Part shown: piece after piece, positions 2,164-62,281 of the stretch
Position numbering within the stretch: position 1 is the first letter of the stretch
Layout of the letters: every line of letters starts with the position of its first letter
Source of the DNA: a virus
Lineage: Duplodnaviria > Caudoviricetes
Length of the DNA stretch: 64,000 nt
Strand: one strand, 5' to 3'
IMG/VR virus record: IMGVR_UViG_3300010352_001405
Coordinates: 64,001-128,000 of that record
Program-made: the position numbers and the translations under genes
The notes under the pieces: model-generated
Told to the model about the DNA's origin: nothing
The model's input: only the letters and a program-made list of their open reading frames with translations
Databases searched by the model: none

Positions 2164-2242
2164 AAATATACTTATTAGAAATATGGTAAATTGAATCAGT
2201 TTTCATCTCTAATATATACAATTAAAAAAAATTAAAAAAAAT

Positions 2243-3040
2243 ATGATTGAAAAAATACGATATATTAAAAAATATAACGAAAGCTTTGATTCTTCCGATA
2301 TTGTAGAAGATGTTAAAAACATAACTAAATGGTTAAAAGAATATTTAAAAATTTCTGGAGCCAAGGGATTTGTAATTGGATTATCTGGGGGAGTAGATTC
2401 TAGTGCTGTTTGTGGTTTAGCTGTTGATGCAGCCGGAAAAGAAAATGTTATCGGTATTCTTTTACCATCTATAGTTGGATATAAAGATGATGTATTGGAT
2501 GGAAAAAGAGTCGCTAAACATTATGGAATAAAATATATTGTGCATCCAATAAAAGAAACTGTTTCCACAATAATAAAAGAAAATAAAGATATGCCGACAA
2601 TGGCTATAGCCAATATTCAAGCCAGGATAAGAATGACTTTGTTAAGAATGTATGCTGAATTGAATGGTTATCTTGTAATTGGAACCACTAATAAATCGGA
2701 AGATATGCTAGGATATTTTACCAAATCCGGTGATGGTGGTTCTGGAGTTGATGTTGAACCATTATCTCAATATTATAAATCAGAAATAAAGAAGTTTGCT
2801 AAATATTATAAATTACCATACGATTTAGTGAATAGAGTCCCGAGTGCAGGATTGTGGGCAAATCAAACGGATGAAGGTGAACTCGGATTCACTTATGATG
2901 ATTTTGAAAACTATTGGAAATGGAAATTATCTAAAAACGGAGATTGTCCTGTTACTGAAGAAGTTGTTAAAAAAATAGAAAAATTATATAGAACAACAGA
3001 ACATAAAAGAAACTTACCACCTTATTATAAGAGAAAATAA
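2243..3040 (+). CDS. nadE: NH3-dependent NAD+ synthetase
   Basis: GLSGGVDS, NIQARIRM, GTTNKSE, GYFTKSGDG, PSAGLW..QTDE, TEHKR. Confidence 0.95.
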   Translation: MIEKIRYIKKYNESFDSSDIVEDVKNITKWLKEYLKISGAKGFVIGLSGGVDSSAVCGLAVDAAGKENVIGILLPSIVGYKDDVLDGKRVAKHYGIKYIVHPIKETVSTIIKENKDMPTMAIANIQARIRMTLLRMYAELNGYLVIGTTNKSEDMLGYFTKSGDGGSGVDVEPLSQYYKSEIKKFAKYYKLPYDLVNRVPSAGLWANQTDEGELGFTYDDFENYWKWKLSKNGDCPVTEEVVKKIEKLYRTTEHKRNLPPYYKRK

Positions 3041-3046
3041 AAAAAT

Positions 3047-3997
3047 TTATTTTAAGACATTTTTCAAATCACATATTAACGAAAAAACATGAAGGGGTGG
3101 ATCCGTGGTGTTTTCGAATTCAGCGTTATATGTTTTATTTAATTCCAATAATTTAAATCCTTTATCTAAAATTATTTCTTTATGATTATTTAATAAATAT
3201 TGATAAAAAGGTCTTCCTAAAATATCAATTAACGTCTTTGGCTGATTTGCCCAATTATCCATAACAAAATAAAAGTTTTCTGAAAAGTTATTATTTTTAT
3301 TTAAAATAAAATCAAATATGTCTTTATAATTTCCTTCTATTGATATATTTTGATCTTCTGTTATATAAATAGTTTGCAAATCCTGAACAGACAATCTAAG
3401 ATCTGGAAAATTTGTATTAATTATTTTTTTTATCGTAATATCATCTACTGTCATTTTAGCATGTTTAACAACGCTCATCAAATATTTATAATAACCATTT
3501 AATAAAAAATTTCTTTCTTCATCATTCATTGGATTAAAACATATCTTATTGAATCTAGATAATAAAGGTCCTATTACTTTAGATATATCATTCATAGATA
3601 TTATAAATCTAATCCTGTGATCATATTTTTCCATAAATCCTTTAAATCCGTCTTGAAATTCAGGACTCGTTTTTTCAAATTCTTCAAGATAAACATATTT
3701 CATTTTATCATCAGTTTTGACAAGCGGAGATGGCATGGAATCACAAAAATCGAGCATTTTTTCTCTTAGTATATTTATACCATTATCTATGTTCGCATTT
3801 ATTTTCATCGAACATTTATCTTTGAGTAGAATATCTACTAATGTAGACTTTCCTGTTCCTTGACATCCATATAATAACCAATTTGCTTGATCTATACCCC
3901 TATTAAAATAATTCTTAATTCTAGGAAGTAAAACCATATTAGACATCGATTTTGGTCTATATTTTTCCCAGAAAAGTTTATTGACAATAGTTGACAT
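3047..3997 (-). CDS. Sliding-clamp loader AAA+ subunit (T4 gp44/RFC-like)
   Basis: WEKYRP, Walker A GCQGTGKS, LEEFE, LLSRF, FPDLR. Confidence 0.85.
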   Translation of the reverse strand: MSTIVNKLFWEKYRPKSMSNMVLLPRIKNYFNRGIDQANWLLYGCQGTGKSTLVDILLKDKCSMKINANIDNGINILREKMLDFCDSMPSPLVKTDDKMKYVYLEEFEKTSPEFQDGFKGFMEKYDHRIRFIISMNDISKVIGPLLSRFNKICFNPMNDEERNFLLNGYYKYLMSVVKHAKMTVDDITIKKIINTNFPDLRLSVQDLQTIYITEDQNISIEGNYKDIFDFILNKNNNFSENFYFVMDNWANQPKTLIDILGRPFYQYLLNNHKEIILDKGFKLLELNKTYNAEFENTTDPPLHVFSLICDLKNVLK

Positions 3998-4052
3998 AAT
4001 ATTCTTTTTTATTTATTTTATGCTGAAAAGAATAAAATGTTTTTTTTAATAA

Positions 4053-12977: not shown

Positions 12978-13048
12978 TTTATTAAACTCTTTTTTCTTTA
13001 TATATTAAAAATAACGTTTGCTAAATTAAAATTTTAATATATAAACAC

Positions 13049-13570
13049 ATGATAAAAATATTTGAAAATTTTTTTAATGATATTATTGATTTAGATTTTG
13101 GTGATATTGTCACATATAGAGGAATAAGGAAGCATCATAAAAGAGATGAAAAAGCAATGGTAATGGGCATAAAGTATGATGAAAAAAACGGTCATGCTTA
13201 TTATAGAATTGAATTTTCGGACGGCGGTCAAAAAATATGTAGAGAACAACTTATACAAAAAAGAATTAAAAAAACATATGATGATATAAGGTTCGAATCC
13301 AAAATGAAAAAGAAACCGAGCTATTTATATTACAAAAATATAAATGATGAAACTGGAGGATTTTTATTCGTCAAAGAAAAACAGAAAAAGGAAATAGCTA
13401 GAAAAGAGAAAAAAAGAAAAGAAAGAGAAAAAAAGAGAGAAGAAATTAGATTAAAAATGTTAGATATAGATCCATATGGTGAAGAAGATTGGGGAATGGA
13501 TGATTATGATCCTGAATTAGATGGGCCTAGATGGATGATGAATTGGAGATTAAATTATCATTTGGATTAA
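13049..13570 (+). CDS. Hypothetical protein with CTS-like leader, SH3/KOW-like segment and DPYGEEDW motif
   Basis: MIKIFENF; FGDIV; DIDPYGEEDW. Confidence 0.6.
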   Translation: MIKIFENFFNDIIDLDFGDIVTYRGIRKHHKRDEKAMVMGIKYDEKNGHAYYRIEFSDGGQKICREQLIQKRIKKTYDDIRFESKMKKKPSYLYYKNINDETGGFLFVKEKQKKEIARKEKKRKEREKKREEIRLKMLDIDPYGEEDWGMDDYDPELDGPRWMMNWRLNYHLD

Positions 13571-17425: not shown

Positions 17426-18163
17426 ATGAATGAAAATGAAGTAATGAATGCACAAACGGAGAAATTTTTCTTCACTTACATTTTAGACAATCCTACTCAA
17501 TTCTATAAAGTAGAACCTGGATTTTTTAAGAATGAAGATATACAATTTATTTATACTGTTGTAAGAGATGAATTTTTAGTAAGCAAAAATAAAAAAACAC
17601 CATCCCCACAACAAATTGTGGCAATGATAAAACTTCGAGATCCAGAAGAAAAAGTATCCAACAATGTTATCAAATCTATTCTTAAAAATGACAATTCTGT
17701 ACACGATCCAGAATGGTTAGAAAAAAGATTTAAGGCTTGGCGTATGTCAAATTTAATAAAAAACGCCACGTATCAAGGTATTGAAATGATTAGAAATTTA
17801 AAAGACATAGATTATGATAATGTATCTGATGTAGCAGCACAACTCAAATCTGTTTATGCTAATTTATCTTTACTTGAAGATGACGATGAAGATCTGGGAG
17901 CTGATTTCGATGACGCCGAAATGCATAAACAAGAAACATCTAAAAATAAAATATCATCTGGATGGGGAAATGTTGATGTTTTATTACAAGGAGGATGGGA
18001 CAAAGGAACTTTTAACGTATTAATGGGGGAGACAAACGTGGGTAAGTGTTGTATGGGAAAGACAATGGTTTCCATAAAAAATAAAAAAACTGGTGAAATA
18101 AAACAAATTAAAATTGGAGAATTTTATAATTTATTAAAACCAACATTTGTTTCACGTATATAA
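17426..18163 (+). CDS. Replicative helicase (DnaB/T4 gp41-like) N-extein plus 38-aa IntN
   Basis: ISSGW..VDVLLQGG..MGETNVGK|CCMGKTMV...stop. IntN is 18047..18160. Confidence 0.85.
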   Translation: MNENEVMNAQTEKFFFTYILDNPTQFYKVEPGFFKNEDIQFIYTVVRDEFLVSKNKKTPSPQQIVAMIKLRDPEEKVSNNVIKSILKNDNSVHDPEWLEKRFKAWRMSNLIKNATYQGIEMIRNLKDIDYDNVSDVAAQLKSVYANLSLLEDDDEDLGADFDDAEMHKQETSKNKISSGWGNVDVLLQGGWDKGTFNVLMGETNVGKCCMGKTMVSIKNKKTGEIKQIKIGEFYNLLKPTFVSRI

Positions 18164-18181
18164 TAATAAAAAAACTTAATT

Positions 18182-19303
18182 ATGGAATGTAAAATTTGTA
18201 ATAAAAAAGTTAATGGAACGAAAGGTTTATCGATACACTTAATCTTATCTCACGAAGTAAATATAAAAGAATATTATGATAAATATTTAAAAAAAGAAAA
18301 TGAAGGTAATTGTTATTTTTGTGGGAAACCGTCTATTTTTTTCAATATGACCAAAGGATATCATAGGATATGTGATTCTAAGGAATGTCTAGGAAAAACT
18401 AGGGCTACTGGAACATACGAATTTTTAATGTACAAATATAATTTATCTAAAGACGAATCTATAAAATTAATGAATGAAAGAGCTTTAGATAGAGGTAAAA
18501 AAATAAAAAGTGGTTTATGGAAATCTTTTGAAAAAAATGAAAACTTTTTTAAAGAAAAATCTAGACAAAGTATTAATTTTTGGTTAAAAAGAGGATATTC
18601 TGAAGAAGAATCTAATAAAATATCAAATGAAATACAAAAAAATATAATTGAAAAAACATCAAAAAAAAGACACGAAAATAAACATTTATATTTAGATGTT
18701 AATCCAACACAATTGGCATATTGGTTAAAAAGAGGATATAGCGATGAAGAATCCAAGAAGAAAATTTCAGATAGACAAAAAACATTTACTTTAGAAAAAT
18801 GTATAGAAAAACATGGTGAAATAGAGGGATTAAAAATATGGAACGAGAGACAAAGAAAATGGAGTGAAAAAATTGAAGAAAAATATAAAAATGGAGATTT
18901 TGTAAAATTTAGAAAAGATATGACTTCATCACCTGAAAATGAATTATTTAAATCTTTGGTAGAAAAATTAAATATTAAAGATAGATCATATTATGGGAAT
19001 AATCAATATTTTAGATATTTTAAAGAGATAGGAAGAACATTTTCTTATGATTTTGTTCATGATAGAAAAATAATAGAATTTAATGGTGATTATTGGCACT
19101 GTAATCCAAAATTTTATAATAAAAATTATTATCATAAATATTTACAAATGACAGCAGAAGAAATATGGGATAATAATAAAATAAAAAATGATATTATTAT
19201 AAAAGAAGGATACGAAGTTTTATCCATATGGGAAAATGATTATAAAAACAATAAAGAAAAAGTAATTCAAGAATGTATAGATTTCTTGAATAAAAAAGAA
19301 TAA
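18182..19303 (+). CDS. Vsr-like free-standing homing endonuclease inside the split helicase gene
   Basis: C2H2-like N-terminus, WLKRGYS repeats, YDF..IIEFNGDYWHCNP..GYEVLSIWE. Confidence 0.8.
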   Translation: MECKICNKKVNGTKGLSIHLILSHEVNIKEYYDKYLKKENEGNCYFCGKPSIFFNMTKGYHRICDSKECLGKTRATGTYEFLMYKYNLSKDESIKLMNERALDRGKKIKSGLWKSFEKNENFFKEKSRQSINFWLKRGYSEEESNKISNEIQKNIIEKTSKKRHENKHLYLDVNPTQLAYWLKRGYSDEESKKKISDRQKTFTLEKCIEKHGEIEGLKIWNERQRKWSEKIEEKYKNGDFVKFRKDMTSSPENELFKSLVEKLNIKDRSYYGNNQYFRYFKEIGRTFSYDFVHDRKIIEFNGDYWHCNPKFYNKNYYHKYLQMTAEEIWDNNKIKNDIIIKEGYEVLSIWENDYKNNKEKVIQECIDFLNKKE

Positions 19304-19311
19304 ATATAAAA

Positions 19312-20391
19312 ATGTTAAATAATTTTGAAAGAAAATTTATAGATACAATAGAAATAGAAGATTGGCAAGTAGAAACTGATACTGGTTGGTCTGATATAAA
19401 ATCAATTGGGAAAACAATAGAATATGATGAATGGACATTAAAAACTGATATGGGATTAGAATTAACTTGTGCAGACACTCATATAGTTTTTGATGAAAAT
19501 GGATATGAGACTTTTGTTAAAGATTTATATTCTGGTTGTATTATAAAAACTAAATCTGGTTTACAAAAAATCTTGTCTGTTAAAAAAACTGATAAAAAAT
19601 CGAATATGTTTGATTTGCAGTTAAATGATAAAAATCACAGATTTTATACAAACGACATATTAAGTCATAATTCAATGTGGCTCTACAATATCGCTTGTAA
19701 TGCTGCAAATCAAGGAAGAAACGTGGCTGTTATAACTGTTGAAATGTCTCAACGCAAAGTCATGAAACGTCTAGGCGCTATGAGATTGAAAATTGATGTT
19801 GACCAATATGATGATATTAGTAAAGATTCTGTATTTATTAAAAACAAAATAAATCAACTCAAAAATACAAATAATGGTTTATTCAATACTGAATCCCCTG
19901 GCAAAATATTTGTTAAAAAGTTTAATACTGGGGATTGCACAATAGTAGACATAGACAATTATTTAACTAAACTCGAAGAAATGAAGGGAATTGATTTAGA
20001 TTTGGTAGTAATAGATTATATCAACTTAATGTCAGTGAGTAAATTAAATAAAGACATATCTAATAATTTATATATGAAAGGAAAACATTTGGCTGAAGGA
20101 CTCAGGTATATTGCCGATAAATTCAACTTAGCGCTCATAACAGCGACGCAAGTAGATAGGGCCGTATGGGGAGCAAATGACATTAAATTACAGGATGTTC
20201 CTGAGTCTAAAGCTGTAGCCGAAACTGCAGATACTTTTTGGGCAATAATCCGTAATCAAGAAATGAAAAAACATAATAAATATAGATTAAAAATATTAAA
20301 ATTGAGGGATGGCGATCACAAAGAAGAAACAATTTTATTTGATTTTCATCCTAAATTTTTAGTAATTGAAAATGATATAATGGAAGCATAA
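19312..20391 (+). CDS. 120-aa IntC plus helicase C-extein
   Basis: LTCADTHIVF...FYTNDILSHN|SMWLYNIA; ITVEM, VVIDYINL, TATQ, ESKAVAETAD, KLRDG. IntC is 19312..19671. Confidence 0.9.
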   Translation: MLNNFERKFIDTIEIEDWQVETDTGWSDIKSIGKTIEYDEWTLKTDMGLELTCADTHIVFDENGYETFVKDLYSGCIIKTKSGLQKILSVKKTDKKSNMFDLQLNDKNHRFYTNDILSHNSMWLYNIACNAANQGRNVAVITVEMSQRKVMKRLGAMRLKIDVDQYDDISKDSVFIKNKINQLKNTNNGLFNTESPGKIFVKKFNTGDCTIVDIDNYLTKLEEMKGIDLDLVVIDYINLMSVSKLNKDISNNLYMKGKHLAEGLRYIADKFNLALITATQVDRAVWGANDIKLQDVPESKAVAETADTFWAIIRNQEMKKHNKYRLKILKLRDGDHKEETILFDFHPKFLVIENDIMEA

Positions 20392-20417: not shown

Positions 20418-21245
20418 TTAGTATTTATTAAATTGTTCTATTTTACTAGCATCTATAAATTTTAATAAATCTATAAATCCGCAATAAATAAAAACTTCTT
20501 TTTCTTTTTCGTTTAATTTTGAATATATTTCCCCGGAAATTAAATCATAAATCACTTTATTTGATAATTTATCATATGGGGTTTTTATAAATTTATTTTT
20601 AAATAAATAAAATTTTAATTGATTAAGTCTGGCATATATTTCAGTTGGTTCACTTAAATATTTTATATATGATGTATCTTTTATAGCTGGAATATTCCAA
20701 TCATTACCTGTTATTTTTCTTATGATATATTCTTGTTTTTCTGGTGAATTTGTAAAATTAAATAATTTTACAAAATTTTCTTTGTTATTTGACATATCAT
20801 ATACTACGTGCATTAATTCATGATACATATTATCGGCGTTTGCTAGAGGATCCAATATCATAATATTATGATTAATTATAGCTGCCATTGTTTGAGTATT
20901 AGATATTTCTCTATCTATTGATCTAAAAAGATTATTACAAAATTCGTCGTTTTTTTTATAAAAAACTATTACGGAATCTAATTTTTTAATTATTTCATTT
21001 TTGTTATTTATCCAAGGATCATTAGATACTTTTCTTTTTGCTTCTTCTAGAACTCTTTTATATACGTAATTGTCATTGGCGATATTCAATGTTTTGGCAT
21101 AATTTTGAAAATAATTCATATCATATCTTTTTGGATTATCTCCTTTAATACTATTGAAAATTAAAGCAATATTTAACGCTAAAGTGGCAGCTTTATTCAG
21201 TGTCCCTTCATTTAAATTATTATAATCTTCAAAATTTTTTATCAT
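20418..21245 (-). CDS. Zincin-like metalloprotease with CTS-like leader
   Basis: HELMH and downstream YLSEPTEIYAR; MIKNFEDYNNLNE. Confidence 0.55.
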   Translation of the reverse strand: MIKNFEDYNNLNEGTLNKAATLALNIALIFNSIKGDNPKRYDMNYFQNYAKTLNIANDNYVYKRVLEEAKRKVSNDPWINNKNEIIKKLDSVIVFYKKNDEFCNNLFRSIDREISNTQTMAAIINHNIMILDPLANADNMYHELMHVVYDMSNNKENFVKLFNFTNSPEKQEYIIRKITGNDWNIPAIKDTSYIKYLSEPTEIYARLNQLKFYLFKNKFIKTPYDKLSNKVIYDLISGEIYSKLNEKEKEVFIYCGFIDLLKFIDASKIEQFNKY

Positions 21246-21329: not shown

Positions 21330-24300
21330 TTATTCACATTTACTCCAATGACAATCTAAACAAGAAATACAACTTTCTTTATATACAAGATTGGTTGAAC
21401 CGCAATTTGGACAAATATTTTTGCCATTTCCCTTATCGTCTTTTATATATTTCTTCAACATTCTGATTATACCTTTTTTCCAAGTTCCCATAGTATCACC
21501 GTCCAAATTTAGAGATTCTATGATACCTACAACAGAAGGAAGATGAATATGATGTCTGAGTAAAGCACTAGTCATTTTACCAATATTCCAATATTCTCTA
21601 GCGAAAGATCTATTTAAACCTGTCATTATAACTTCGTATCCTTCTTTATCAATATAAATAAAGTCATATCTAGATACTAAAATTCCTTCTTTGTTTTTTA
21701 TTTTTTCCTTTCTTATTTGGCCTTTTTCTATCCACGCTGGAATGACAAATGATTCTGCTAGACCAGTGAAAATTTCATAGGGAGAATCTTTTAATATACC
21801 AATAAACCCAATCCATTTTTCACCCTTATTAGTGAATCTAATAACATCACATTCTAAAATTCTTGGTCTTTTTGGTGCATTATTTTCTTCAAATTCAGTT
21901 TTCTTTTCTTCTTTTTTAACAATAACGCCTTGTCTGGATCCATCTCTATATATTGTTATTCCTTTACATCCACTTTTCCATCCAGTTTCATATACTTTTG
22001 AAACTAATTCCTCAGTAATATTATGTGGTAAATTCACCGTAACTGAAATAGAATGATCTATCCATTTTTGAATTTGACCTTGCATATTCACTTTTTCTAC
22101 CCAATCAATATCATTTGATGTTGAATTGAAATAAGGTGATTGTTTAATTATTTCATTTAATTTTTCATCATTCATTTTAGAAACTTCATCAACATCAAAT
22201 CCTTTAATTTTTAACCATTCAACAAATTTGTGATGAAAAACCACATATTCTTCCCAATCAATACCTTCAGCATCGGTAAAATCTATTTTAACTTTATTAT
22301 CATTTTGATTTATTTTTCTACGTCTTTTATAAGCAATTAAATAAGCTGGTTCTATTCCCGATGTTGTTTGAGTTAATGTGCTTACAGATCCTGTTGGTGC
22401 TAAAGTCAATAATGATATATTTCTTCTACCATAATTTTTCAACATTTCAGATAATTCTTTATCTGCATCTTTTAATCTATTAATAAAAGGATTATTAATT
22501 TCTCTATTATAATCATATATTGGAAAAGTTCCTCTTTCTTTAGCAAGGTTACAAGACGATTTATAAGCATTTATAGACATAAATTTATGAATTTCTACAG
22601 AAATTTCTGTAGCTGATTTAGTGCCATAATGTTTATTTAAAGCAGCTAACATATCTCCCTCTCCAGTAGTACCAAATCCAGTTCTCCTACCTTGAATAGT
22701 TTTTTCTTTTATATCTAACCACAATTGTTTTTCCCTACCTTTAATATAATCTTCCTCGGGATCAGAATTAATTTTTTCTATTATTTTATATATTTTTTCG
22801 ATTTCTAAATCTATCATATCATCCATTAATCTTTGACCTATCCAAACATGTTTCTTAAATAAATCAAAATCAAAATAAGCTTTATCAGTAAATGGATTAA
22901 TAACATAAGAATATAAATTGAGAGCCAATAACCTACAGGAATCCTTGCTACAAAGGGGAATTTCTCCGCAATTTTCAGTTAAAACGTTGATTTTAAAGTA
23001 TTTATCCGTGATAAAATAAGTGTGAAAGTCGTCCACAGTTCCGTTATATACGTTTTCTATTCCATCTAATTCTACAGATAATACTTTATGATTAAAAAAT
23101 ACAGATTCTTCTTTAAGTTCATTATAAGAACTAAAACCATATTTAGTTTTTAATCTAAATGGAATTTCGTTTTCTTTGCATTCTTTTTCCCATTCTTTCA
23201 ATAATGGGATTCTTTTTAAGTTAAATTCTAAATCATTGTATATTTTTAATTGTTTTTGTTTAGTTTCATTTCCTTTTGCGTTATATGTATCATTTATTGT
23301 GTTTTTTCTTTTATTTCTTATATTATTATTTGTATTAATATAATTTAGAGAACAACCATGTGAACAGAAACTTATTTCTCTTTTTATATAATTAACCCAA
23401 AAATATTTACCGCAATTTTCACATGTTTTTTCTATCATCACACAATTTTCTCTAATTTCGGCATTATATCCATTATTTAAAGCTTTTTTATATGTTTCAA
23501 CTAATCTTGGATCATTGTTGATAAAATCAATTTCTAATTCAATAGCTACTAATTTGGCTAAAGATGTTACACTTTCAAAATTTCTAAATTTTGTAAAATA
23601 TTGTGGTAAATTATTTTTTCTAGCATAATTTATCCAATCTTTTTTGGAAAATCGTTTACCTAATTGTTTAGTTAAAATTATAGCATGATTTTTAATTTCT
23701 TCATCTAATATTCCACTATAATTCGGATTATTCTCTCCTGGATGAGATGCGAAATCCAATTTCCATTTATTTGACATACTATGATAAGAATTCAATTTTC
23801 CTAATTTATCAATTGTATGTAATTTATCATGTTTTTCTTTTGACATGATAACTAAATTTTCAGGATTATTATTCATGCCATTATAATCTTTATGATGAAC
23901 AACCAAATTTTCATTTAAATCAACATTTTTATTATAATATTGAGCGATCAATCTATGTTCTCCGATCGATTCACTACCATTCCTAAGTGTATAATAAGTA
24001 TTAGATTTTTTATATTTATTTTCATATTTAGTCATAATCTTCAAACTATCACCATATTTTAAATTTTTAGCCTCTACTCTATCATTATCTCTTAATACAA
24101 ATACATGATTTCCAGTAACTCTGTATGAAATACCTCCTTCGATTGTAACTTTATAAATTTGTTGATCATATCCAGTTATGCGAGGATTTCTCATTTTTCT
24201 AATAACTAATTTTCCTTCATTATCCATTGAGTAAACTGGAACATCTTTACCTTCTTCCGCTAATTGTTTTATACTGACAGCATTGCGTCCATCAGCTACA

Positions 24301-27765: not shown

Positions 27766-27842
27766 ATACATTTACATTTATGTCATAAAGCCGTTTAAAC
27801 TTTTTCATATAATTTGTATATAAATAATAAAAAATACGAATT

Positions 27843-29204: not shown

Positions 29205-29255
29205 GTTTTCTTTTTTTTTTTAATATATACAATAAAAAAAAAGAAAATACAGATT

Positions 29256-32087: not shown

Positions 32088-32170
32088 TAAAAAACCTTTT
32101 TTGTATTTTATATTATTTTTTTTCTATTTAGTTTTTAAAAATTAATATATAGTTTAAAATAAAACATATT

Positions 32171-37285: not shown

Positions 37286-37395
37286 TAAATATACTATTAG
37301 ATCAAATAAGTAGATATAATATTATTTTTTTGTTTTAATATATAGTTTTATAATATAACATTTAAAGATGTTTATTAAAAAAAAATAAAAAAACC

Positions 37396-37803: not shown

Positions 37804-37819
37804 AAAAAATAAAAAAATC

Positions 37820-38245: not shown

Positions 38246-38260
38246 AAAAATAAAAAATCC

Positions 38261-38677
38261 ATGAACAATATAAAGACATACATACAATACAATGAAGGAA
38301 GATTGATATCAAAAAAACACGATAATGTTGCAAAGAAAATTTTAAAATATATCAATAAATATGATGTGGATTATAATTTTAGTATGACATTAAATGGTTA
38401 CTATTTTCATATAGATTCTTCAAAAATAAAAAGATTAAATGATCCTTACAACGAAGAAGATTGGGGAACTGAAAGGATTAACATGTCTATTAAGAAAGAA
38501 AATGGTGAGTTATCGACATTCTATATTCTGTCTATTGAATACGAAGAAATGGAAGTTTCTAATTATTTAGCCAAAAAAATATATAGATCATTTGAAAATA
38601 TGGATAATATTAAGAAAGAAAGAAAGAGAAATGCCGAAGCAAATAAAGCATTAGATTTATTAAATAAAATAAATTAA
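38261..38677 (+). CDS. Paralog array member 3
   Basis: MNNIKTYIQYNE; DPYNEEDW. Confidence 0.65.
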   Translation: MNNIKTYIQYNEGRLISKKHDNVAKKILKYINKYDVDYNFSMTLNGYYFHIDSSKIKRLNDPYNEEDWGTERINMSIKKENGELSTFYILSIEYEEMEVSNYLAKKIYRSFENMDNIKKERKRNAEANKALDLLNKIN

Positions 38678-38681
38678 AAAT

Positions 38682-39077
38682 ATGAATAATGTTCAATCAT
38701 ATATTCAATACAATGAGGAATTATTTTTCGGTTCTAAATATAGAAATTTAGTTAATAAATTATACTATTATATATCTAAGATGAGCATAAATGATATTGT
38801 AGTATACGATAATATTTGTCGTATTCACATTATTGCTAATAATAATAAAGAAGTCGATCCATATGGTGAAGAAAATTGGGGTGAAGATTTGATTGTAGAA
38901 GTATTTTTAGAAGAACATTATCCTTATTTAAGGATAAACGGTGATATGGTAGATATTAAATTAAGAGAGGCTAGAAATTTAAGTAATTTGATAAAAAAAA
39001 GATTAGTTAAAAAAGAAAAAGATGAAAGAGATGAAAGAATAAATAGAGCAACTAGAGGATTTTTATCAAAAAAATAG
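38682..39077 (+). CDS. Paralog array member 4
   Basis: MNNVQSYIQYNE; DPYGEENW. Confidence 0.65.
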   Translation: MNNVQSYIQYNEELFFGSKYRNLVNKLYYYISKMSINDIVVYDNICRIHIIANNNKEVDPYGEENWGEDLIVEVFLEEHYPYLRINGDMVDIKLREARNLSNLIKKRLVKKEKDERDERINRATRGFLSKK

Positions 39078-40103: not shown

Positions 40104-40835
40104 TTATTTTTCACCGTAGATATCTTTTTTAATCTCCTCCATTACCCACACCACTGCATCGTAAGTTCCATCAATAACATAATCATATAAACTTTCAACT
40201 TCTGGTGGATCATCATAATATTTATTATCCAAAAGAATTTGATCTATATCACTTTGATATTTAAGATAAAAATCCATTAAATCTGCATCCTCAACAAAAC
40301 CTTCCAAGATTTCTTCTGAATTTGATTCTATATAATCATCTATAAATTTTTGAACTTTAGTTACATCACCTTTTAAAGTTTTATCAAGTAAATCTAAGAC
40401 CCCCATTTTTAATGATAAATATTCATTTGATAATTTTTCTTTCAACTCATCATCAAATCCTTCGTTTAATGGAAAGATTTCTTTAAATGTTTTTAATTTT
40501 TCATCCATTTGTTTAATATTAATTTGTACTTCATAATTCTTCAATATATTATAAAGATTTTCTATATCTTCATAAACGTTATCGATTAATTGTTCATCCC
40601 CCTTTTCGTCTTTAACGACTTTATTTTTAATGTCTATGAAATAGTTTTTCTTTCCGCTTCTATTAAATAATAATTCAAATCCGTTTTTTGTCTCGTTAAA
40701 TGAATCAAAATAATTACTTTTTATAACATCATGATTGTAAATATAATCACTAACTTCTTTGGATAAATTTAGCAAATCTGTGAATGAATGGTGATTTTCA
40801 TATTGTTCGAAATATTTAGAAAAATTTAATGTCAT
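40104..40835 (-). CDS. Hypothetical acidic protein
   Basis: 243 aa; internal LKTFKEIFPLNE leader-like segment. Confidence 0.55.
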   Translation of the reverse strand: MTLNFSKYFEQYENHHSFTDLLNLSKEVSDYIYNHDVIKSNYFDSFNETKNGFELLFNRSGKKNYFIDIKNKVVKDEKGDEQLIDNVYEDIENLYNILKNYEVQINIKQMDEKLKTFKEIFPLNEGFDDELKEKLSNEYLSLKMGVLDLLDKTLKGDVTKVQKFIDDYIESNSEEILEGFVEDADLMDFYLKYQSDIDQILLDNKYYDDPPEVESLYDYVIDGTYDAVVWVMEEIKKDIYGEK

Positions 40836-40923
40836 GTTTTTTTATTTTTTTTTTATCTTAAACATATATATTAAAATAAAAAAATAATATTATATCTACT
40901 TATTTGATCTAATAGTATATTTA

Positions 40924-41297
40924 TTACTCTATACGTATTTTTAATTTTAATTTTAAATAATTTTTATATTCTTGGGTGAATCTATTATTAGAACATTTTA
41001 AATATCTTAAATTCGTTAAACTTTCAATCCCTTCTAAATTGGTTAATTGATTATTAAAACAAATTAATTGTCTTAAATTCGTTAAATTTTCAATTCCGTA
41101 TAGATCTGTTAATTGATTATTATAGCAATATAACACTTTTAAATCCGTTAAATGTTCAATTCCTTCTAAACTAAACTAGTTAATTGATTATTACAACAAT
41201 CTAAATATGTTATTTTATCTAATGGTATATTTTGTTTTTTAGCTATCCGTATTATCGGGGCATCATTGTACTGTGTGTATGTCTTTAAATTATTCAT
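40924..41297 (-). pseudogene. Frameshifted chimeric LRR gene copy
   Basis: MNNLKTYTQYN fused to the LRR body. A 5-bp duplication (tttag) near 41170 causes a stop. 3' end nearly identical to 36536..37285. Confidence 0.8.
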
Positions 41298-41450
41298 GGT
41301 TTTTTTATTTTTTTTTAATAAACATCTTTAAATGTTATATTATAAAACTATATATTAAAACAAAAAAACCAAAATTTTAAAACTTTAAATAGAAAAGAAA
41401 ATATAATTTCATAAGATAAATATTTTACTAACTTTTAAACTAAAAAGAAC

Positions 41451-43851: not shown

Positions 43852-44070
43852 TTAATTATCCCAATCTTCTTCACCATAAGGATCTAATTCTCTATTTATT
43901 TTTTTCCTTATATATGTTTTTTTAAATTCAGAAAATTTTCTTAATTCTTCTAATATTAAAATTCTTTCATATTCTTCAAGATTGTACCATTCTTCTTTAT
44001 TCATTCTAAGAGATTTGAAAACTTCAATTGAATCTAAATATTCTTTTTTTGTCATGCTCAATCCTCCCAA
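43852..44070 (-). CDS. Small protein with C-terminal DPYGEEDW
   Basis: ELDPYGEEDWDN*. Confidence 0.6.
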   Translation of the reverse strand: MGGLSMTKKEYLDSIEVFKSLRMNKEEWYNLEEYERILILEELRKFSEFKKTYIRKKINRELDPYGEEDWDN

Positions 44071-44510
44071 TTTTCTTCCCCATATGGATCTACTTCACTA
44101 TAAACTCTTTTATCAATATATTCAAGAGATGGTATGAATTCTAATTTCATTTTATTATCTATAAATAAAGGATTATCCGAACCATTTATATTTAAGATTG
44201 ATAATCCATCTTCTCTTATAAAATTTATAAATTCATCGACGTCTCCAAAAAAACAATCGTCCGGAATGAAAAATATTGGGCAATTGTCAATTTTTGAAAA
44301 TCCTAAAAATCTAATCCAATTTTTAGGATCAAAATTCATATAATTTTCTTTATGGTGCATATTTATATGTTCCGATATATCAACACATCCTATATGTATC
44401 CAACATTCTTTTATTTCACCACATGAAGTATTAATGAAATCGATTTGATTTCTCAACATTTTTGAAAATTTTAATGCTTTTACCGATTGTAATCTTATTA
44501 TTGATGGCAT
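44058..44510 (-). CDS. Protein with C-terminal DPYGEENW
   Basis: KRVYSEVDPYGEENWED*. Confidence 0.6.
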   Translation of the reverse strand: MPSIIRLQSVKALKFSKMLRNQIDFINTSCGEIKECWIHIGCVDISEHINMHHKENYMNFDPKNWIRFLGFSKIDNCPIFFIPDDCFFGDVDEFINFIREDGLSILNINGSDNPLFIDNKMKLEFIPSLEYIDKRVYSEVDPYGEENWED

Positions 44511-44513
44511 TTA

Positions 44514-44696
44514 TTATTCCTCCCAATTTTCTTCTCCATAAGGATCTCTATCACTAAATTCTTGGTTTTTTGGTTTTGACATATATTTTCTATTTTCTAC
44601 TGTAAAATTAATAAAATTACGCATTACCCATTTGTACCATGAATCATAAGAATGTTCGTTGGCAAAAGTTTTCAATATTTCCTCTGGTTTTCTCAT
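44514..44696 (-). CDS. Small protein with C-terminal DPYGEENW
   Basis: DRDPYGEENWEE*. Confidence 0.6.
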   Translation of the reverse strand: MRKPEEILKTFANEHSYDSWYKWVMRNFINFTVENRKYMSKPKNQEFSDRDPYGEENWEE

Positions 44697-57189: not shown

Positions 57190-57284
57190 GATTCTTTATT
57201 ATTGTAATTTAATCATATGACATATATTATATATTCTATTTTTTGTTTTTTTGAATTTTATATATAAATAAAAAACCTTTTTTA

Positions 57285-58112
57285 ATGATTAAAAAATTCG
57301 ATAATTTCGAAGAATGGAAGCCAAAATATAAAATAGGTGATATATTTTACTGGATATGGAATCCGGATTGGTGTATCCCCGATCGTTATGCAAATTCTCA
57401 ATGTAAATTGATAGAAATAAAACAAAGTAGTACTAGAAAACTTTTGATGAAAGTAAAATTTTTGAAAGATGATCGTCATATTAATTGGTGGTGTGATATA
57501 AAAGATTTAAAAACAGAAGATGAAATGTTAGATTTTTATATTAAACAAGAAGAAAATAGAGAAAAATATCAAGACATAGATCCTTATGGTGAAGAAATTT
57601 GGGAGAAACATAAAAGTAAAAAAATTTTTGAAAATTTCGAAATAGACAATAGTAAAATTTGGATAATAGGTGTCCCGAGTGGTGAAGCGTTATTAGTAGA
57701 TAGGGATAAACTCAATGAGTTGTATAATAATAAATTAATTAAATATTCCACTCAGTATTCTGAAACCGGTTTTTTTGTTTTTAACGATAATAATAAAGAT
57801 GAGATAATGAATTATATATCCCCAAAAATTGAGAACGATTATATTATATACGAAAATCAATTTGGAGATCAACTCATTAAAATGATTAAAATAATTCTCG
57901 ATAAATATCCATTTTATATAGAACTTTATGTAAACGAAGGATATATGACAATAAGTTATGAAAAATGTCATATAATGATTAAGAAAAACGTAATCGGACC
58001 AAAATATAAATTCGAAAAAAGAAATGAAAATATACTAATAGACGTTTATAACATACAAACTGATAAACTTTTAATGAAAAGAATTGAAATCGATTTAAAT
58101 ATAGAACTTTAA
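57285..58112 (+). CDS. Two-module hypothetical protein
   Basis: MIKKFDNFEE, KYKIGD, DPYGEEIW, internal KKIFENFE, GVPSGE. Confidence 0.6.
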   Translation: MIKKFDNFEEWKPKYKIGDIFYWIWNPDWCIPDRYANSQCKLIEIKQSSTRKLLMKVKFLKDDRHINWWCDIKDLKTEDEMLDFYIKQEENREKYQDIDPYGEEIWEKHKSKKIFENFEIDNSKIWIIGVPSGEALLVDRDKLNELYNNKLIKYSTQYSETGFFVFNDNNKDEIMNYISPKIENDYIIYENQFGDQLIKMIKIILDKYPFYIELYVNEGYMTISYEKCHIMIKKNVIGPKYKFEKRNENILIDVYNIQTDKLLMKRIEIDLNIEL

Positions 58113-58637: not shown

Positions 58638-59213
58638 TTATAAAGAAGGTTGCTCTTCTTCGAGGGGAGTACCTTGTGGCGATGGAGGAGTACCTTGTGG
58701 TGTGGGTGTTTCTTGACCATTTGGCAACTGTGGTGGTGGCGTCGTTGTAGATTGTGATTGAGATGGTTCTTTTTCTTTTGGAACCTCTATTTTATTTTCG
58801 TCTGGATTTTCTTTTTTATCGTTCATTTTATCTATTTGTTGAATAACAAAATCTTCTTTTACATCATCTATTTTAACCTGTTTATCGTTTGTCAAATCTA
58901 TTTGAGCAATTGGTTTACCTCCACCAATTTGATCCATGTTATTTGGATCGTATTTTTTAATAATTAAATCACAATTTTCTAAATCTTCAATAAAGAATCT
59001 GATAATCATTTGATAATAGAATTCTGCGTCAGCAAAATTGACCATGATCGACCTTTTTGATGCATTTGGTGTTGTGCTTTTTGTCATTTCAACTGGAGTA
59101 GCACTTAGAGAAAAAGAACCATCTTGAAACCAATATGTTATTCTTTCTATTATTTTATTGATTATTTGATCCATTTCATAATCAGCTTGCATAAATTCCT
59201 CAAACATTTTCAT
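58638..59213 (-). CDS. Hypothetical protein with CTS-like leader and P/Q/T tail
   Basis: MKMFEEF; TPQGTPP. Confidence 0.6.
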   Translation of the reverse strand: MKMFEEFMQADYEMDQIINKIIERITYWFQDGSFSLSATPVEMTKSTTPNASKRSIMVNFADAEFYYQMIIRFFIEDLENCDLIIKKYDPNNMDQIGGGKPIAQIDLTNDKQVKIDDVKEDFVIQQIDKMNDKKENPDENKIEVPKEKEPSQSQSTTTPPPQLPNGQETPTPQGTPPSPQGTPLEEEQPSL

Positions 59214-59264
59214 ATTTATTGTAAAATTATTTTAATATATATATTAAAAAATTATATCATTAAA

Positions 59265-59480
59265 ATGATCAAAAAATTTTATCTTTTCGAAAAATATGAA
59301 GATGAACCTTACGATGAAGAAGATGAAGATATTTTCGAAATAGGTGATAGAGTGATAAAGAATGAAAGAATAAAACCTCCATTTGAATTAGATGGAAATG
59401 CAGTTGACGTACAATGACCTGCTGGTAGATGTTTTGAAACAATAGATCAATTAAAAAAAATAAAAGAAAATGAATAATTT
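59265..59480 (+). pseudogene. Small CTS-leader gene with premature TGA
   Basis: MIKKFYLFEKYEDEPYDEEDEDIFEIGDRV..VDVQ*PAGRCFET..ENE*. Confidence 0.4.
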
Positions 59481-59754
59481 ATTAAGTTATTTAGAATACA
59501 TTAGAGAAAATGACGGTGGAGGAGTGGCTTTTGCAACACCGAACGGGAATGGCATGGGAAATGTTGTATCTCCTACTGTTGGATCAACTCCTGGATCTGT
59601 ATGGCAATCAGGTTCTGGTCAAATTGGTAGTGGTGATATTGCATCAATGGGAAAGAAAATTGGTTCTTTTACAAATAAGCAAAAGAAATCCAAAAAAAAT
59701 AAAAGAACCAAAAGACAAAAACCGTTATATTATATGAAACAAAACATATTATGA
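59470..59754 (+). CDS. Gly-rich/basic small protein
   Basis: MNNLLSYLEYIRE; GMGNVV, GSGD, Lys-rich tail. Confidence 0.6.
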   Translation: MNNLLSYLEYIRENDGGGVAFATPNGNGMGNVVSPTVGSTPGSVWQSGSGQIGSGDIASMGKKIGSFTNKQKKSKKNKRTKRQKPLYYMKQNIL

Positions 59755-60047
59755 TAAAGAAATTTAACGAAAATTGGAATACTTTTTATGATTATATAAA
59801 AGGTGAATCCGAAAACAAAGTCAATTTTGATAAAAACATAGAAATAATTGGGCTTCCTACAGGTCAAATAATTTATATGACACCAAATCAGATTAAATAT
59901 TTTAAAAGTAGAGATTTCATAAGATTTATGAATACTTGGAAAAAACCAATATCTGGTGGTTTTATTCCAATAAAAGTAGAAAGATATTGTTTTGAAGATG
60001 TAAATTACAAAACAATAATAGATTTAATAGAAGCTATAACATGGTAA
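59751..60047 (+). CDS. Hypothetical protein (GxP(S/T)G family)
   Basis: MIKKFNE; IIGLPTGQ. Confidence 0.6.
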   Translation: MIKKFNENWNTFYDYIKGESENKVNFDKNIEIIGLPTGQIIYMTPNQIKYFKSRDFIRFMNTWKKPISGGFIPIKVERYCFEDVNYKTIIDLIEAITW

Positions 60048-60544
60048 AAAAATATAATTTATTTTTAGAATCTAACCAATATATATCAGAGTATATATTG
60101 GGAATACCCAGTGGTGAAATAATTTATATTAAAAATAGAGAAGACTTAAATATTTTAATAAGAAAAGACATAATAAGATTCGAAAATAGAGTCAATGATC
60201 AATCTGTTAATTGTTATTGTTTTAATGACGATAAGAAACATTTAGTAATCAATTATCTCAACATGGATAGTGAAATACCACATGATAAAATAAATATATG
60301 CAGTGATTTTCAAAAAGAAATTTCACGTATTATAGGAAAAAGAGTCGCCATTGGATACATGTCCCTTTTTGGATATTCTTATTATTACGCAATCATTCCC
60401 GATTTAAATATAAACAAAAGATTTTACGAACTAAAAAAAGAAGAATTGGATCATACGACAAATAGAATGCAAAGAAAATATCTATTTTCTCATTTTTATT
60501 ATAAAGAAAAAATGATAAATGATAAAATGAAATATCTCATGTAA
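60041..60544 (+). CDS. Hypothetical protein (GxP(S/T)G family)
   Basis: MVKKYNLFLE; ILGIPSGE. Confidence 0.6.
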   Translation: MVKKYNLFLESNQYISEYILGIPSGEIIYIKNREDLNILIRKDIIRFENRVNDQSVNCYCFNDDKKHLVINYLNMDSEIPHDKINICSDFQKEISRIIGKRVAIGYMSLFGYSYYYAIIPDLNINKRFYELKKEELDHTTNRMQRKYLFSHFYYKEKMINDKMKYLM

Positions 60545-60547
60545 AAT

Positions 60548-61246
60548 TTAATCATTTGTTTTAAGCAATTTATTAACTAAAGTGGGGTCATTTTTAAAGT
60601 CGTCTATTATCTTATTCCATTTTTTCTGATCAAAAATGACAACATCATCATCAGTTATTTGCTCTTGCGCTTTTTGATCTTCCATTTTTTGTTGTTCAAT
60701 AATTTCTTTGTGAATATATTCATCTCTTAATTCCTTATAAAAGGCTTTCATTTTTGTTAAAAGATCATTTATCATTTTAGAACTTTCTCTTATTTCTTTT
60801 TGATAAGAATTGACAGCAACATGCATATTTGGATCATTCGCACCAGCATCCAATTGTTTCATGCAATTAACTAATCCTAATTTAGCACAAGATAAAGAGA
60901 ATTTTATATTACTTATTTGTTCGGCATCATTCTTAATGATGCTTTTAACATTCTTTTTTTTCATGTGATCATCATCTAAATATAAACTAGAAATACAATC
61001 CAATGTTTCTTTAGCTTCTTCTTTAATAAGTTCAATATCTTTATCGTAATCATGATTGATATATTCAAAATCAATTCCAGGTAATAAATCTTTTGGTGGA
61101 ACTAAATCTTTAGATAGATTATCCATCTCACTTATCATTGAATTTATTTCGTTTTGCAGATTTCCTATATTAGATAATTTTTTATTCATATAATCTTTAT
61201 CTTCTTCTTGATCCTTATATTTTTTTGGACGTCCTCTAGTGGTCAT
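60548..61246 (-). CDS. Helical hypothetical protein with AT-hook-like RGRPKK
   Basis: Likely start MTTRGRP at 61246. Confidence 0.5.
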   Translation of the reverse strand: MTTRGRPKKYKDQEEDKDYMNKKLSNIGNLQNEINSMISEMDNLSKDLVPPKDLLPGIDFEYINHDYDKDIELIKEEAKETLDCISSLYLDDDHMKKKNVKSIIKNDAEQISNIKFSLSCAKLGLVNCMKQLDAGANDPNMHVAVNSYQKEIRESSKMINDLLTKMKAFYKELRDEYIHKEIIEQQKMEDQKAQEQITDDDVVIFDQKKWNKIIDDFKNDPTLVNKLLKTND

Positions 61247-61300
61247 TTTTATTGATTTATTTTTTAATATATATGGATATATATAAAATAACAAGGGTCA

Positions 61301-61669
61301 ATGAGTAATATTTTAAAATTTAACGAATTCGCTGATAAAAAATCAGAATTATGTATAAAAACAAATAATATATCCGAATTTTACAACTTGATGAAAATTT
61401 TAGAAGAAAATGGATATAATTGGCGAAATGGGTCAAAACCGACTAGTTTATGTTTTGAAATAACAATTATCGTGTGGATAAATAATATTAAAAAAACAAT
61501 TCGTTATTCGTCTATAGAATATTACATAGGATTAACACACAAACCTGAATTAATTGATATGTCTGATCATGATCAATATTTTCCTTGTAAATTAAAAAAA
61601 ATAAGTAATCCTGAATTAGATCCGTATAATGAAGAAGATTGGGGGTGGGAAGAGGTTCCCAACAAATAA
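61301..61669 (+). CDS. Hypothetical protein with CTS-like leader and DPYNEEDW
   Basis: MSNILKFNEF; LEENGYNW; ELDPYNEEDW. Confidence 0.6.
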   Translation: MSNILKFNEFADKKSELCIKTNNISEFYNLMKILEENGYNWRNGSKPTSLCFEITIIVWINNIKKTIRYSSIEYYIGLTHKPELIDMSDHDQYFPCKLKKISNPELDPYNEEDWGWEEVPNK

Positions 61670-61678
61670 ATATAACTT

Positions 61679-62281
61679 ATGAAATATATTAAAAAATATA
61701 AATTGTTCGAGAACGTAGTTACAGAATTATATTTATCCGGTAGAAATTTAACTGAATTACCTGGATTGCCGGATACATTAAAAATATTATATTGTTATAA
61801 TAATAGATTAACTGAATTACCTGATTTACCAGATACGTTAGAAAGATTATGGTGTGATAATAATAAATTAACTGAACTACCTGATTTACCAGATACATTA
61901 GAAAGATTATGGTGCGGGGATAATAATTTAACTAAATTGCCTGAATTACCAGATACATTAGAAATATTATATTGTTATAATAATAAACTAACTGAATTAC
62001 CAGAATTTTCAGAAACATTACAATATTTAAATTGTTATAATAATAACTTAACTGAATTACCTGAATTACCAAAAACATTAATATATTTAGATTGTAGTAA
62101 CAATAAATTAACAGAATTACCTGAATTACCAGAAACATTAAAATATTTATATTGTATTGGTAATAAATTACCTTATAATAATTTAAAATCTTATTGGAAA
62201 TGGTATTATAATAAATATCCAAGTATAACTTATGAAATATTTGATATAACGATTTATTTCAAGATGTCAATGCTTCAATAA
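61679..62281 (+). CDS. Leucine-rich repeat protein (20-aa, YopM/IpaH-type repeats)
   Basis: About 7 copies of LTELPxLPxTLxxLxCxNN; MKYIKKYKLFE. Confidence 0.9.
   Translation: MKYIKKYKLFENVVTELYLSGRNLTELPGLPDTLKILYCYNNRLTELPDLPDTLERLWCDNNKLTELPDLPDTLERLWCGDNNLTKLPELPDTLEILYCYNNKLTELPEFSETLQYLNCYNNNLTELPELPKTLIYLDCSNNKLTELPELPETLKYLYCIGNKLPYNNLKSYWKWYYNKYPSITYEIFDITIYFKMSMLQ

Follow-up and report, generated by a model that had tools for sequence, protein, structure and literature searches.

An N-terminal leader resembling the T4 capsid targeting sequence on many unrelated proteins in a clade of huge phages

Capsid targeting sequences and prohead proteases

In bacteriophage T4 the internal proteins IPI, IPII and IPIII and the Alt protein are made with a capsid targeting sequence (CTS), an N-terminal propeptide of about ten residues that stands on otherwise unrelated proteins and is removed by the prohead protease gp21. 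The products of ipII and ipIII start with MKTYQEFIAE, and that of ipI with MKTFKEFTST. According to passages of a review (PMC9026906), gp21 cleaves after L/I-X-E, the first ten residues of IPIII are enough for packaging, and in the mutagenesis of Mullaney and Black, as related there, residues 4 and 7 serve mainly targeting and residues 8 and 10 processing. The same passages give the propeptide of the capsid protein gp23 as 65 residues, state that T4 propeptides "have affinity" for the prohead core and that internal proteins co-purify with gp22, and note that CTS-like leaders were already known from the variable internal proteins of T-even phages. Recognition of the CTS by the prohead core has been an open question since 1996. 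The subject of this report is a short leader of similar form that opens many genes in a 64,000-nucleotide stretch of phage DNA (Duplodnaviria; Caudoviricetes), positions 64,001 to 128,000 of the IMG/VR record IMGVR_UViG_3300010352_001405; this whole stretch is referred to as the window.

A second system for comparison is that of the phiKZ-like phages, in which, according to sections of one study (PMC5694885), many internal head proteins enter the head by means of N-terminal propeptides that are trimmed after Glu by a gp21-related protease (phiKZ gp175, SPN3US gp245). As described in those sections, the phiKZ-like propeptides are mostly at least 100 residues long and are not one common short peptide, the cleavage motif is S/A/G-X-E with a small residue at P3 in place of the I/L/V found here, and the counterpart of the scaffold is unconfirmed.

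The interpretation favored here, with a probability of about 0.6, sees in the leader a capsid-targeting propeptide like that of T4, which would load many different proteins into the head, on an unusually large scale, in a clade of 0.6-0.7-Mb huge phages of Bacteroidota type. By sequence comparison, the leader core, [FY]-x-x-[FY]-[ILV]-x-E, corresponds to one unit of the 14-residue repeat of a predicted scaffold that is fused to a putative gp21-type prohead protease. A leader-bearing protein would imitate a scaffold repeat and in this way enter the scaffold core of the prohead, and the protease, which would be part of the same polypeptide as the scaffold, would cut leaders and scaffold repeats alike after Glu. 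The freed body would stay in the head as cargo, perhaps until it is ejected along with the DNA. Binding, cleavage, packaging and ejection of leader proteins are proposed by analogy with T4. No description of such leaders, or of a repeat scaffold, in huge phages was found in the main text of Al-Shayeb et al. 2020 (supplements not included), in the Jug-phage paper, or in further literature that included some items by title or abstract only.

Source of the sequence and its relatives

The window is part of a single contig of 163,324 bases with 25.6% guanine plus cytosine (GC), from an uncultured huge phage, for which CheckV estimates a completeness of 23%. Pfam and PHROG scans of the contig identified T4-like replication genes (gp32, UvsX, clamp loader, fused topoisomerase II) and GroEL/GroES, along with an abundance of homing endonucleases and split genes; two Lon/Clp-like ATPases are also encoded. 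The closest complete relative is LR756501 (LR756501.1/LR756503.1, 735,411 bases), with 84% identity in UvsX, and the contig UvsX is 46-49% identical to those of the 634-642-kb genomes LR756504, LR756502 and LR745206. A megablast search of 20 kb of the window against phage records gave one match, of 544 bases. In the main text of Al-Shayeb et al. 2020, LR756501, LR756503, LR756504, LR756502 and LR745206 are assigned to the "Mahaphage" clade, with Bacteroidetes as predicted hosts. To judge from these relatives, the window belongs to a genome of perhaps 0.7 Mb. Since the fragment covers only a piece of such a genome, head genes were studied in the relatives.

Gene calls were crude, taking the first ATG of the longest non-overlapping open reading frames (ORFs) in a greedy manner, and gave 229 genes on the contig. 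Counts by fixed pattern refer to the 219 contig genes of at least 50 amino acids (aa) and counts by position matrix to the 224 of at least 45 aa; 83 genes lie wholly in the window.

A leader shared by unrelated proteins

The consensus of the leader on the contig is M-(I/V)-K-x-[FY]-x-x-[FY]-(I/L/V)-x-E. The fixed pattern ^M.{0,4}K.[FY]..[FY] opens 30 of the 219 contig genes, where internal windows predict 1.5. The same pattern follows 3 of 702 internal Met residues, is found in 9 of 354 shadow ORFs, and occurs in shuffled N-termini with a mean of 2.0 and a maximum of 7 over 500 shuffles. With a trailing Glu added it opens 26 of the 219 genes (1.1 expected) and none of the 354 shadow ORFs. An iterated position matrix, with its threshold set at the 99.5th percentile of internal windows (5.5), picks 42 of 224 contig genes where 1.1 are expected. 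The matrix count is somewhat circular because the matrix was trained on the set that it scores, and the fixed patterns are therefore relied on more. The first aromatic residue lies at residue 4-10 in all 42 carriers. With the leader removed, the 42 carriers fall into 30 BLAST families, 27 of them singletons, and so paralogy is no explanation of the excess. Two matrix hits, an ABC permease and a methyltransferase whose ortholog does not have the stretch, are probably false positives, and a radical-SAM protein is perhaps another.

The initial annotation had counted about 20 genes in the window with a shared leader. That count holds, with 12 of the 42 matrix carriers among the 83 window genes and about 20 by a looser reading, and all eleven N-termini that it quoted were located where it had placed them. 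Enrichment over shuffled N-termini, which it had proposed as a check, is borne out by the 30 matches observed against a mean of 2.0.

The leader recurs in the relatives. In LR756501 the same fixed patterns start 61-62 of 1012 genes, with 4-5 expected, the matrix built on the contig selects 80 of 1012 (0.9 expected), and the seven-residue core begins within the first 12 residues of 52 of 1012 proteins, against 3.5 expected. In the first 400 kb of LR756504 the core is present at 21 N-termini, against 2.6 expected. As an AT-rich control, Tenacibaculum phage PTm1 (29.7% GC), which has a T4-type head and a flavobacterial host, was processed with the same gene caller; the core is found at 2 of its 303 N-termini, with 0.7 expected, and no other shared N-terminal motif was detected among them. 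The excess is thus not reproduced by the AT-rich compositional null that had also been suggested.

Comparison with the T4 capsid targeting sequence

Residues 4, 7, 8 and 10 of IPIII are Y, F, I and E, and the pattern that they define, [FY]xx[FY][I]xE, is the leader core found here. Both sequences are N-terminal, are about ten residues long, stand on unrelated proteins, and combine two aromatic residues three apart with I/L, any residue and Glu; a T4-type portal and capsid module with a putative gp21-type protease is present in relatives of the phage. The leader differs from the CTS in a one-residue shift of register (M-I-K-K-F against M-K-T-Y) and in that it comes in two length classes, with Glu at +4 or +6 relative to the first aromatic residue.

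The Glu was examined in 117 distinct leader cores from the contig and LR756501. Of the 52 leaders whose first Glu is at +6, 47 have I/L/V/M at +4, compared with 11 of the other 65 (p = 2e-16); of the 29 whose first Glu is at +4, 21 have I/L/V/M at +2, compared with 6 of the other 88 (p = 1e-11). A position-independent matrix cannot create such a coupling. Because of this coupling, the hydrophobic residue can be said to track the Glu at the spacing of a gp21 site. [ILVM]-x-E is present at the first Glu of 75 of the 104 Glu-bearing leaders, or of 87 of the 104 with F/Y allowed at P3; 13 of the 117 leaders have no Glu at +4 to +8.

The resemblance to the T4 CTS claimed in the initial annotation is upheld by the four shared functional positions, the end of L/I-X-E type, the T4-type head module in relatives, and the repeat core of the scaffold described below. 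In T4 itself the seven-residue core occurs at three N-termini only (ipII, ipIII and the 54-aa gp61.1), and the internal match at gp23 residues 59-65, FGSFLTE, is the end of the propeptide. When the contig matrix was applied to 260 T4 N-termini, ipII ranked 5, ipIII 6 and ipI 11. The top T4 match to the matrix, above the internal proteins, was gp61.1 (gene 61.1, NC_000866 18966-19130, MKTFKEFIKED).

A predicted protease-scaffold fusion built from leader cores

In LR756501 a T4-type gp4, a portal protein (Portal_T4, 236 bits) and a capsid protein (Gp23, 83 bits) are encoded in T4 order. Between the portal and capsid genes is an 807-aa ORF (LR756501 73913-76336), which in tblastn searches matches the "prohead core scaffolding protein and protease" of PTm1 (27% identity, E 2e-18) and, in other jumbo phages, protease and scaffold genes that are neighbors. 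Because of these matches, the ORF is read as a protease-scaffold fusion. Residues 319-479 consist of 12 units at an exact spacing of 14 residues, of the type Y-S-E-Y-I-A-E-N-L-D-K-S-I-D, each with the leader core and each ending in I/L/V-A-E (V-G-E in one unit). Additional cores lie upstream, at residue 263, and at residue 662, and 14 of the 63 internal core matches among all 1012 LR756501 proteins fall in this ORF, 13 of them counted as one run at 14-residue spacing. Across the relatives the predicted scaffold comprises 10-13 such tandem repeats. By eye, the leader consensus I-K-K-F-N-x-F-I-N-E-x-V/L agrees with the scaffold unit at 8 of 9 positions. Homologs of the fusion contain 11 core copies in LR756502, 11 in LR756504, 2 degenerate copies in LR756500 and none in PTm1. 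Past the repeats, the LR756501 fusion and its homologs have an acidic, Gln-rich linker and a conserved C-terminal domain.

The organization differs from that of T4 in the predicted fusion of protease to scaffold in the LR756501 clade and in a scaffold that is a tandem series of leader cores; a tandem array of leader cores was sought in T4 gp22 and not found. PTm1 and the Rak2-like jumbo phages, which have gp21 and gp22 pairs, resemble LR756501 in tblastn homology to the 807-aa ORF and in the order of portal, protease/scaffold and capsid genes. PTm1 differs in its scaffold repeats (...FTKELSEGIEKWI...), which include no leader core, and in having no shared N-terminal leader.

Repeats of the scaffold type also occur in the window:

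31208-31777, - strand: 189-aa protein with no N-terminal leader; scaffold-type 14-residue repeats YANYIAN, FSEYIAE and YSEYIAE at residues ~80-115

The repeats are followed by a Gly-rich, collagen-like stretch and a C-terminal DPYGEEDWSEN; the LR756501 ortholog lies at 619760-620383. The product is possibly a core-associated fiber or spacer. A search with its 65-residue repeat region among 1.84 billion representatives gave 278 hits at E <= 1e-3. With the window's own protein excluded, 22 of the top 30 hits have an N-terminal Peptidase_S77 domain at E <= 0.01, which in 16 scores above the curated cut-off, and at least three cores are present in 109 of the 149 hits listed. The consensus of 756 repeat units is K-S-I-x-Y-S-E-Y-L-A-E-N-L-D-K.

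Selection on the leader peptide

The pattern of substitutions indicates that selection acts on the leader at the protein level. Of the 80 LR756501 leaders, 79 have F or Y at position 0 and 78 have it at +3, positions that were also used to select them; F and Y interchange at both, and synonymous codons are used at approximately genome-wide rates. The contig and LR756501 share 85 colinear ortholog pairs. Both partners have the leader in 11 pairs and neither has it in 68; it is confined to the LR756501 gene in 2 pairs and to the contig gene in 4, and at least 2 of these 4 retain the pattern below threshold when judged by eye. The residues themselves drift between orthologs, as in MIKKFNLFEE and MPKMKKFNSFINE. 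Searches with two leader proteins found three relatives for one and one for the other, numbers too small for sound alignments. Two database homologs of the protein encoded at 60041 are only 43-46% identical to it overall, yet MVK(K/N)YNLFLESNQ is retained. In a weak AlphaFold2 model of this protein, built on a 5-sequence alignment with a mean predicted local distance difference test (pLDDT) score of 64, residues 1-15 are below pLDDT 50 and the fold begins at residue 17. A Foldseek search of the PDB with the same weak model gave no match at E <= 0.001.

A second shared motif, DPYGEExW

Many proteins of the contig contain a second motif, D-P-Y-G-E-E-x-W, found in 27 of the 229 contig proteins and 91 of the 1012 of LR756501; none was found in T4, in PTm1 or in the portion of LR756504 that was examined. 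LR756501 has 106 copies, of which 40 stop 2-4 residues short of the C-terminus and mostly come behind (K/R)-(V/I)-(F/Y)-(S/T)-x-x, 21 follow an N-terminal leader, and 45 lie between domains of larger proteins. The two motifs co-occur on the contig (both in 16 genes, leader only in 26, DPYGEExW only in 11, neither in 171; p = 5e-7) and in LR756501 (26, 54, 65 and 867 in the same order; p = 3e-10). All synonymous codons occur in the motif, with CCT and TAC over-used, and its DNA pattern is present in at least 166 stretches of IMG/VR contigs, with many per contig. A guess is that DPYGEExW is a second docking motif; no description of it was found in the literature. Sites of this type in the window are as follows:

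13049-13570, 31208-31777, 36536-37285, 37784-39077, 43852-44696, 57285-58112 and 61301-61669: genes with DPYGEExW-type sites

Leader genes of the window and their upstream regions

The leader genes of the window, with the looser candidates and the remnant, are listed below.

13049-13570, + strand: leader gene, 173 aa, MIKIFENFFND; DPYGEEDW at residue 141
20418-21245, - strand: leader gene, 275 aa, MIKNFEDYNNLNE; HELMH at residue 142; no Pfam or PHROG family
29256-29633, + strand: leader gene, 125 aa, MKHVKLYEEYG; weaker, matrix score 11.1; promoter-like motif at 29220-29230
36536-37285, + strand: leader gene, 249 aa, MIKNFKIFEQ; DPYGEEDW at residue 17, then a leucine-rich repeat (LRR) domain (LRR_4, E 4.5e-54)
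37396-39077, + strand: four tandem small paralogs, MNN(L/I/V)(K/Q)(T/S)Y(T/I)QYNE, at 37396-37803, 37784-38245 (from Met13), 38261-38677 and 38682-39077; internal DPY(G/N/D)EE-W in three of the four
40104-40835, - strand: leader gene, 243 aa, MTLNFSKYFEQYEN; LR756501 ortholog 68% identical, begins MPLTFQKFFEEY
41166-41297, - strand: 43-aa remnant, MNNLKTYTQYND; same 36-nucleotide (nt) promoter-like context as gene 37396, inverted
57285-58112, + strand: leader gene, 275 aa, two cassettes; MIKKFDNFEE, a small domain and DPYGEEIW (residue 99) form the first
58638-59213, - strand: leader gene, 191 aa, MKMFEEFMQAD; LR756501 ortholog 75% identical overall, first 18 residues identical
59265-59417, + strand: leader gene, 50 aa, MIKKFYLFEKY; promoter-like region at 59232-59247, divergent and common to this gene and 58638-59213
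59470-59754, + strand: small gene, looser leader MNNLLSYLEYIRE; core pattern present, matrix score 0.1
59751-60047, + strand: small gene, looser leader MIKKFNENWNTFYDY; named in the initial annotation, fails the matrix
60041-60544, + strand: leader gene, 167 aa, MVKKYNLFLESNQ; leader nearly unchanged in the 43-46% homologs
61301-61669, + strand: 122-aa gene, MSNILKFNEFADKK; matrix score 5.1, just below threshold; DPYNEEDW 8 residues before the C-terminus
61679-62281, + strand: leader gene, 200 aa, MKYIKKYKLFEN; LRR protein (LRR_4, E 8.3e-25)

The second cassette of gene 57285 consists of an internal leader-like KKIFENFEI (after DPYGEEIWEKHKS) and an IGVPSGE domain, and this half is a stand-alone leader gene in LR756501 (727415-727936). 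The stretches 37335-37400 and 41297-41360 share an identical 36-nt context and a MNNLKTYTQYN start in opposite orientations, and the context of the remnant at 41166-41297 looks like a duplicated promoter-plus-leader cassette.

The initial annotation had drawn up a payload of LRR proteins, a metalloprotease and NadE. The LRR proteins stand as leader carriers; the "metalloprotease" at 20418-21245 has a single HELMH motif and no family match. The third, NadE, is as follows:

2243-3040, + strand: NadE (NAD_synthase, E 3.6e-65); 18-residue N-terminal extension MIEKIRYIKKYNESFDSS, lacking in the LR756501 ortholog

Judged by its aromatic spacing of 4 in place of 3 and by its failure in the matrix, this extension is leader-like only, and NadE is not a canonical member.

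A promoter-like motif precedes many leader genes. In LR756501, 20 of the 80 leader genes have ATATATAG in the 100 nt before their start, compared with 63 of the 932 others (p = 1.4e-6 before correction). The longer form T(T/A)(T/A)ATATATAG has 78 copies there, 69 of them correctly oriented at most 150 nt upstream of a start, and ends about 5 nt or 20-25 nt before the ATG. Of 67 LR756501 genes behind the longer motif, 64 were scanned (three across locus borders were omitted) and 16 matched PHROG families, among them four tail fibers and one head-tail adaptor and no replication gene. On the contig, TT(T/A)ATATATA stands before 16 of the 42 leader genes, compared with 27 of the 182 other genes (p = 0.001); a terminase fragment at 27241 is also preceded by it. 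The window has 27 copies of TT(T/A)ATATATA(G), of which 20 lie no more than 90 nt ahead of a same-strand start; the motif often ends 4-5 nt or 20-25 nt before the ATG. Copies include the following:

13034-13044 (TT[TA]ATATATA, 4 nt upstream of the ATG of gene 13049), 29220-29230, 32142-32152, 37335-37345, 40864-40874, 57257-57267, 59232-59247 and others: promoter-like motif

From this spacing, leader genes with the motif 4-5 nt before the ATG may have mRNAs that are leaderless or nearly so, that is, with little or no untranslated 5′ sequence. The motif fits late expression, on thin evidence; no enrichment of the T4 late promoter TATAAATA was seen in front of leader genes. Mobile promoter cassettes (PeSL), attributed to Arbiol, Comeau and Krisch in 2010, reportedly shuffle small genes in T4-type phages. 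The arrangement here is similar in that a common promoter-like element stands directly before many small variable genes, and differs in that the conserved unit continues into the coding region as a peptide that appears to be under selection.

Weighing the interpretations

Several observations count against a capsid-targeting role. The leader marks 10-19% of genes here, against 3-4 genes in T4, a scale without precedent, and the leaders of the T4 internal proteins score 5.4, 3.6 and 1.9 on the contig matrix, at or below its threshold of 5.5. Because of these scores, sequence likeness to the T4 leaders is suggestive and not decisive. The Pfam and PHROG scans found no capsid, portal or protease gene and no S77 match on the contig, itself a 23%-complete fragment, and the head module is taken from relatives at 84% (UvsX) identity or less. 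Even there, the N-terminus of the 807-aa ORF matches Peptidase_S77 with 24.1 bits, under the Pfam cut-off of 27 (24.7 bits in LR756504; T4 control, 372 bits). By matrix score the scaffold repeats lie no higher than the 99.7-99.9th percentile of internal 9-mers and are not the top internal hits; only the simpler seven-residue pattern singles them out, and it was fixed after the scaffold sequence had been seen. The repeats are, moreover, tandem copies and not independent events. Leader genes do not cluster near head genes and are spread over the 735 kb of LR756501, where the bin with the head module has 5 leader genes in 58, similar to other bins. For the reading of the upstream motif as a late promoter, 5 of the 16 nameable genes behind it are structural and 48 of the 64 have no family. 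Some carriers are odd as cargo, namely the ABC permease, the radical-SAM protein and an 826-aa AAA protein with a LAGLIDADG insert.

One alternative is that the leader is a portable docking or oligomerization tag with a destination other than the capsid, such as a phage-built compartment, a hub protein, or the phage's AAA/Lon-like proteases or chaperonin; its likeness to the scaffold repeat would then be only a common short amphipathic-helix design. The leader is found on enzymes and on many early-looking small genes scattered over the genome, GroEL/GroES and two Lon/Clp-like ATPases are encoded on the contig, and DPYGEExW, which co-occurs with the leader and is missing from the head proteins examined, suggests a wider system of tags and readers. 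This explanation nevertheless leaves unexplained the coupling of Glu to I/L/V/M, the match to the four functional T4 positions, and the recurrence of the core as the repeat unit of the scaffold, seen in three deep-branching relatives and 109 of the 149 hits listed, and it is considered unlikely. Lower still is the standing of the proposal that gene starts (promoter-like motif, ATG and leader) and gene ends (DPYGEExW and stop) are the borders of cassettes shuffled by microhomology, with the peptides as by-products. The promoter-like motif that is often 4-5 nt upstream of the ATG, the two-cassette fusion at 57285, the identical 36-nt promoter context of genes 37396 and 41166, and the over-use of CCT and TAC in the DPY codons all speak for it. 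It is made improbable by the frequent synonymous codons and F/Y swaps in both motifs, by orthologs that retain the pattern and not the residues or the DNA, by leaders that lie far from any promoter motif, and by the internal position of the scaffold repeats, which are hardly cassette borders.

Two further explanations deserve very little credence. A side effect of AT-rich composition, or of codon preference at translation initiation in A-rich, unstructured and partly leaderless mRNAs, could be suspected in a genome of 25.6% GC in which many leader genes may be leaderless or nearly so, and Lys-rich codons 2-4 are frequent in AT-rich genomes. This idea is largely refuted already, since shuffles, internal Met residues and shadow ORFs give 0-9 matches against 26-30 observed, PTm1 at 29.7% GC has no excess, and mixed codons encode the aromatic pair, the I/L/V and the Glu, which are thus features of the amino-acid sequence. 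It is just as hard to credit that all carriers are diverged paralogs of one family whose conserved first helix is the leader. Nine carriers are LRR paralogs and several others have common small domains (IGxPSGE, K-I-G-D-x-V), but the carriers form 30 BLAST-distinct families with 27 singletons and include LRR, RNaseH-like and unrecognized folds, the AlphaFold2 model places residues 1-15 outside the fold (at low confidence), and one LR756501 paralog begins exactly past the leader.

If the leader is a capsid-targeting propeptide as favored here, the largest known phages would ship dozens of proteins (LRR proteins, small domains of no assigned function and some enzymes) with their DNA, and much of the gene content of huge phages would be pre-made cargo for host takeover or anti-defense. 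The leader would then offer an easy means to predict the virion cargo of uncultured phages and to bring foreign proteins into capsids. A scaffold that is a plain array of the leader motif makes the question of CTS recognition directly testable with peptides and one recombinant protein. A bolder proposal, tentative and put at clearly less than even odds, is that the T4-type CTS is a single copy of the scaffold's own repeat, and that in these phages a two-part terminal code, made up of an N-terminal leader and, in the LR756501 sublineage, a DPYGEExW tail, directs 10-20% of the proteome to the head. Any protein with one N-terminal scaffold unit would co-polymerize with the core and then be clipped free. 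If this were true, the physical basis of T4 CTS action, so far missing, would be explained, and the virion cargo would be far larger and more modular than in any studied phage.

Other features of the window

One group of genes has the second motif and no leader:

43852-44696, - strand: three consecutive small genes of 67, 150 and 60 aa, no leader; each ends in DPYGEE(D/N)W plus 2 residues

Three further loci in the window are genes interrupted by mobile elements. At 17426-20391 a DnaB-like helicase is split in two around an endonuclease-like ORF, at 21330-25235 a ribonucleotide reductase contains an intein with an HNH domain, and at 27241-28805 an N-terminal fragment of the terminase large subunit is followed by an endonuclease-like ORF.

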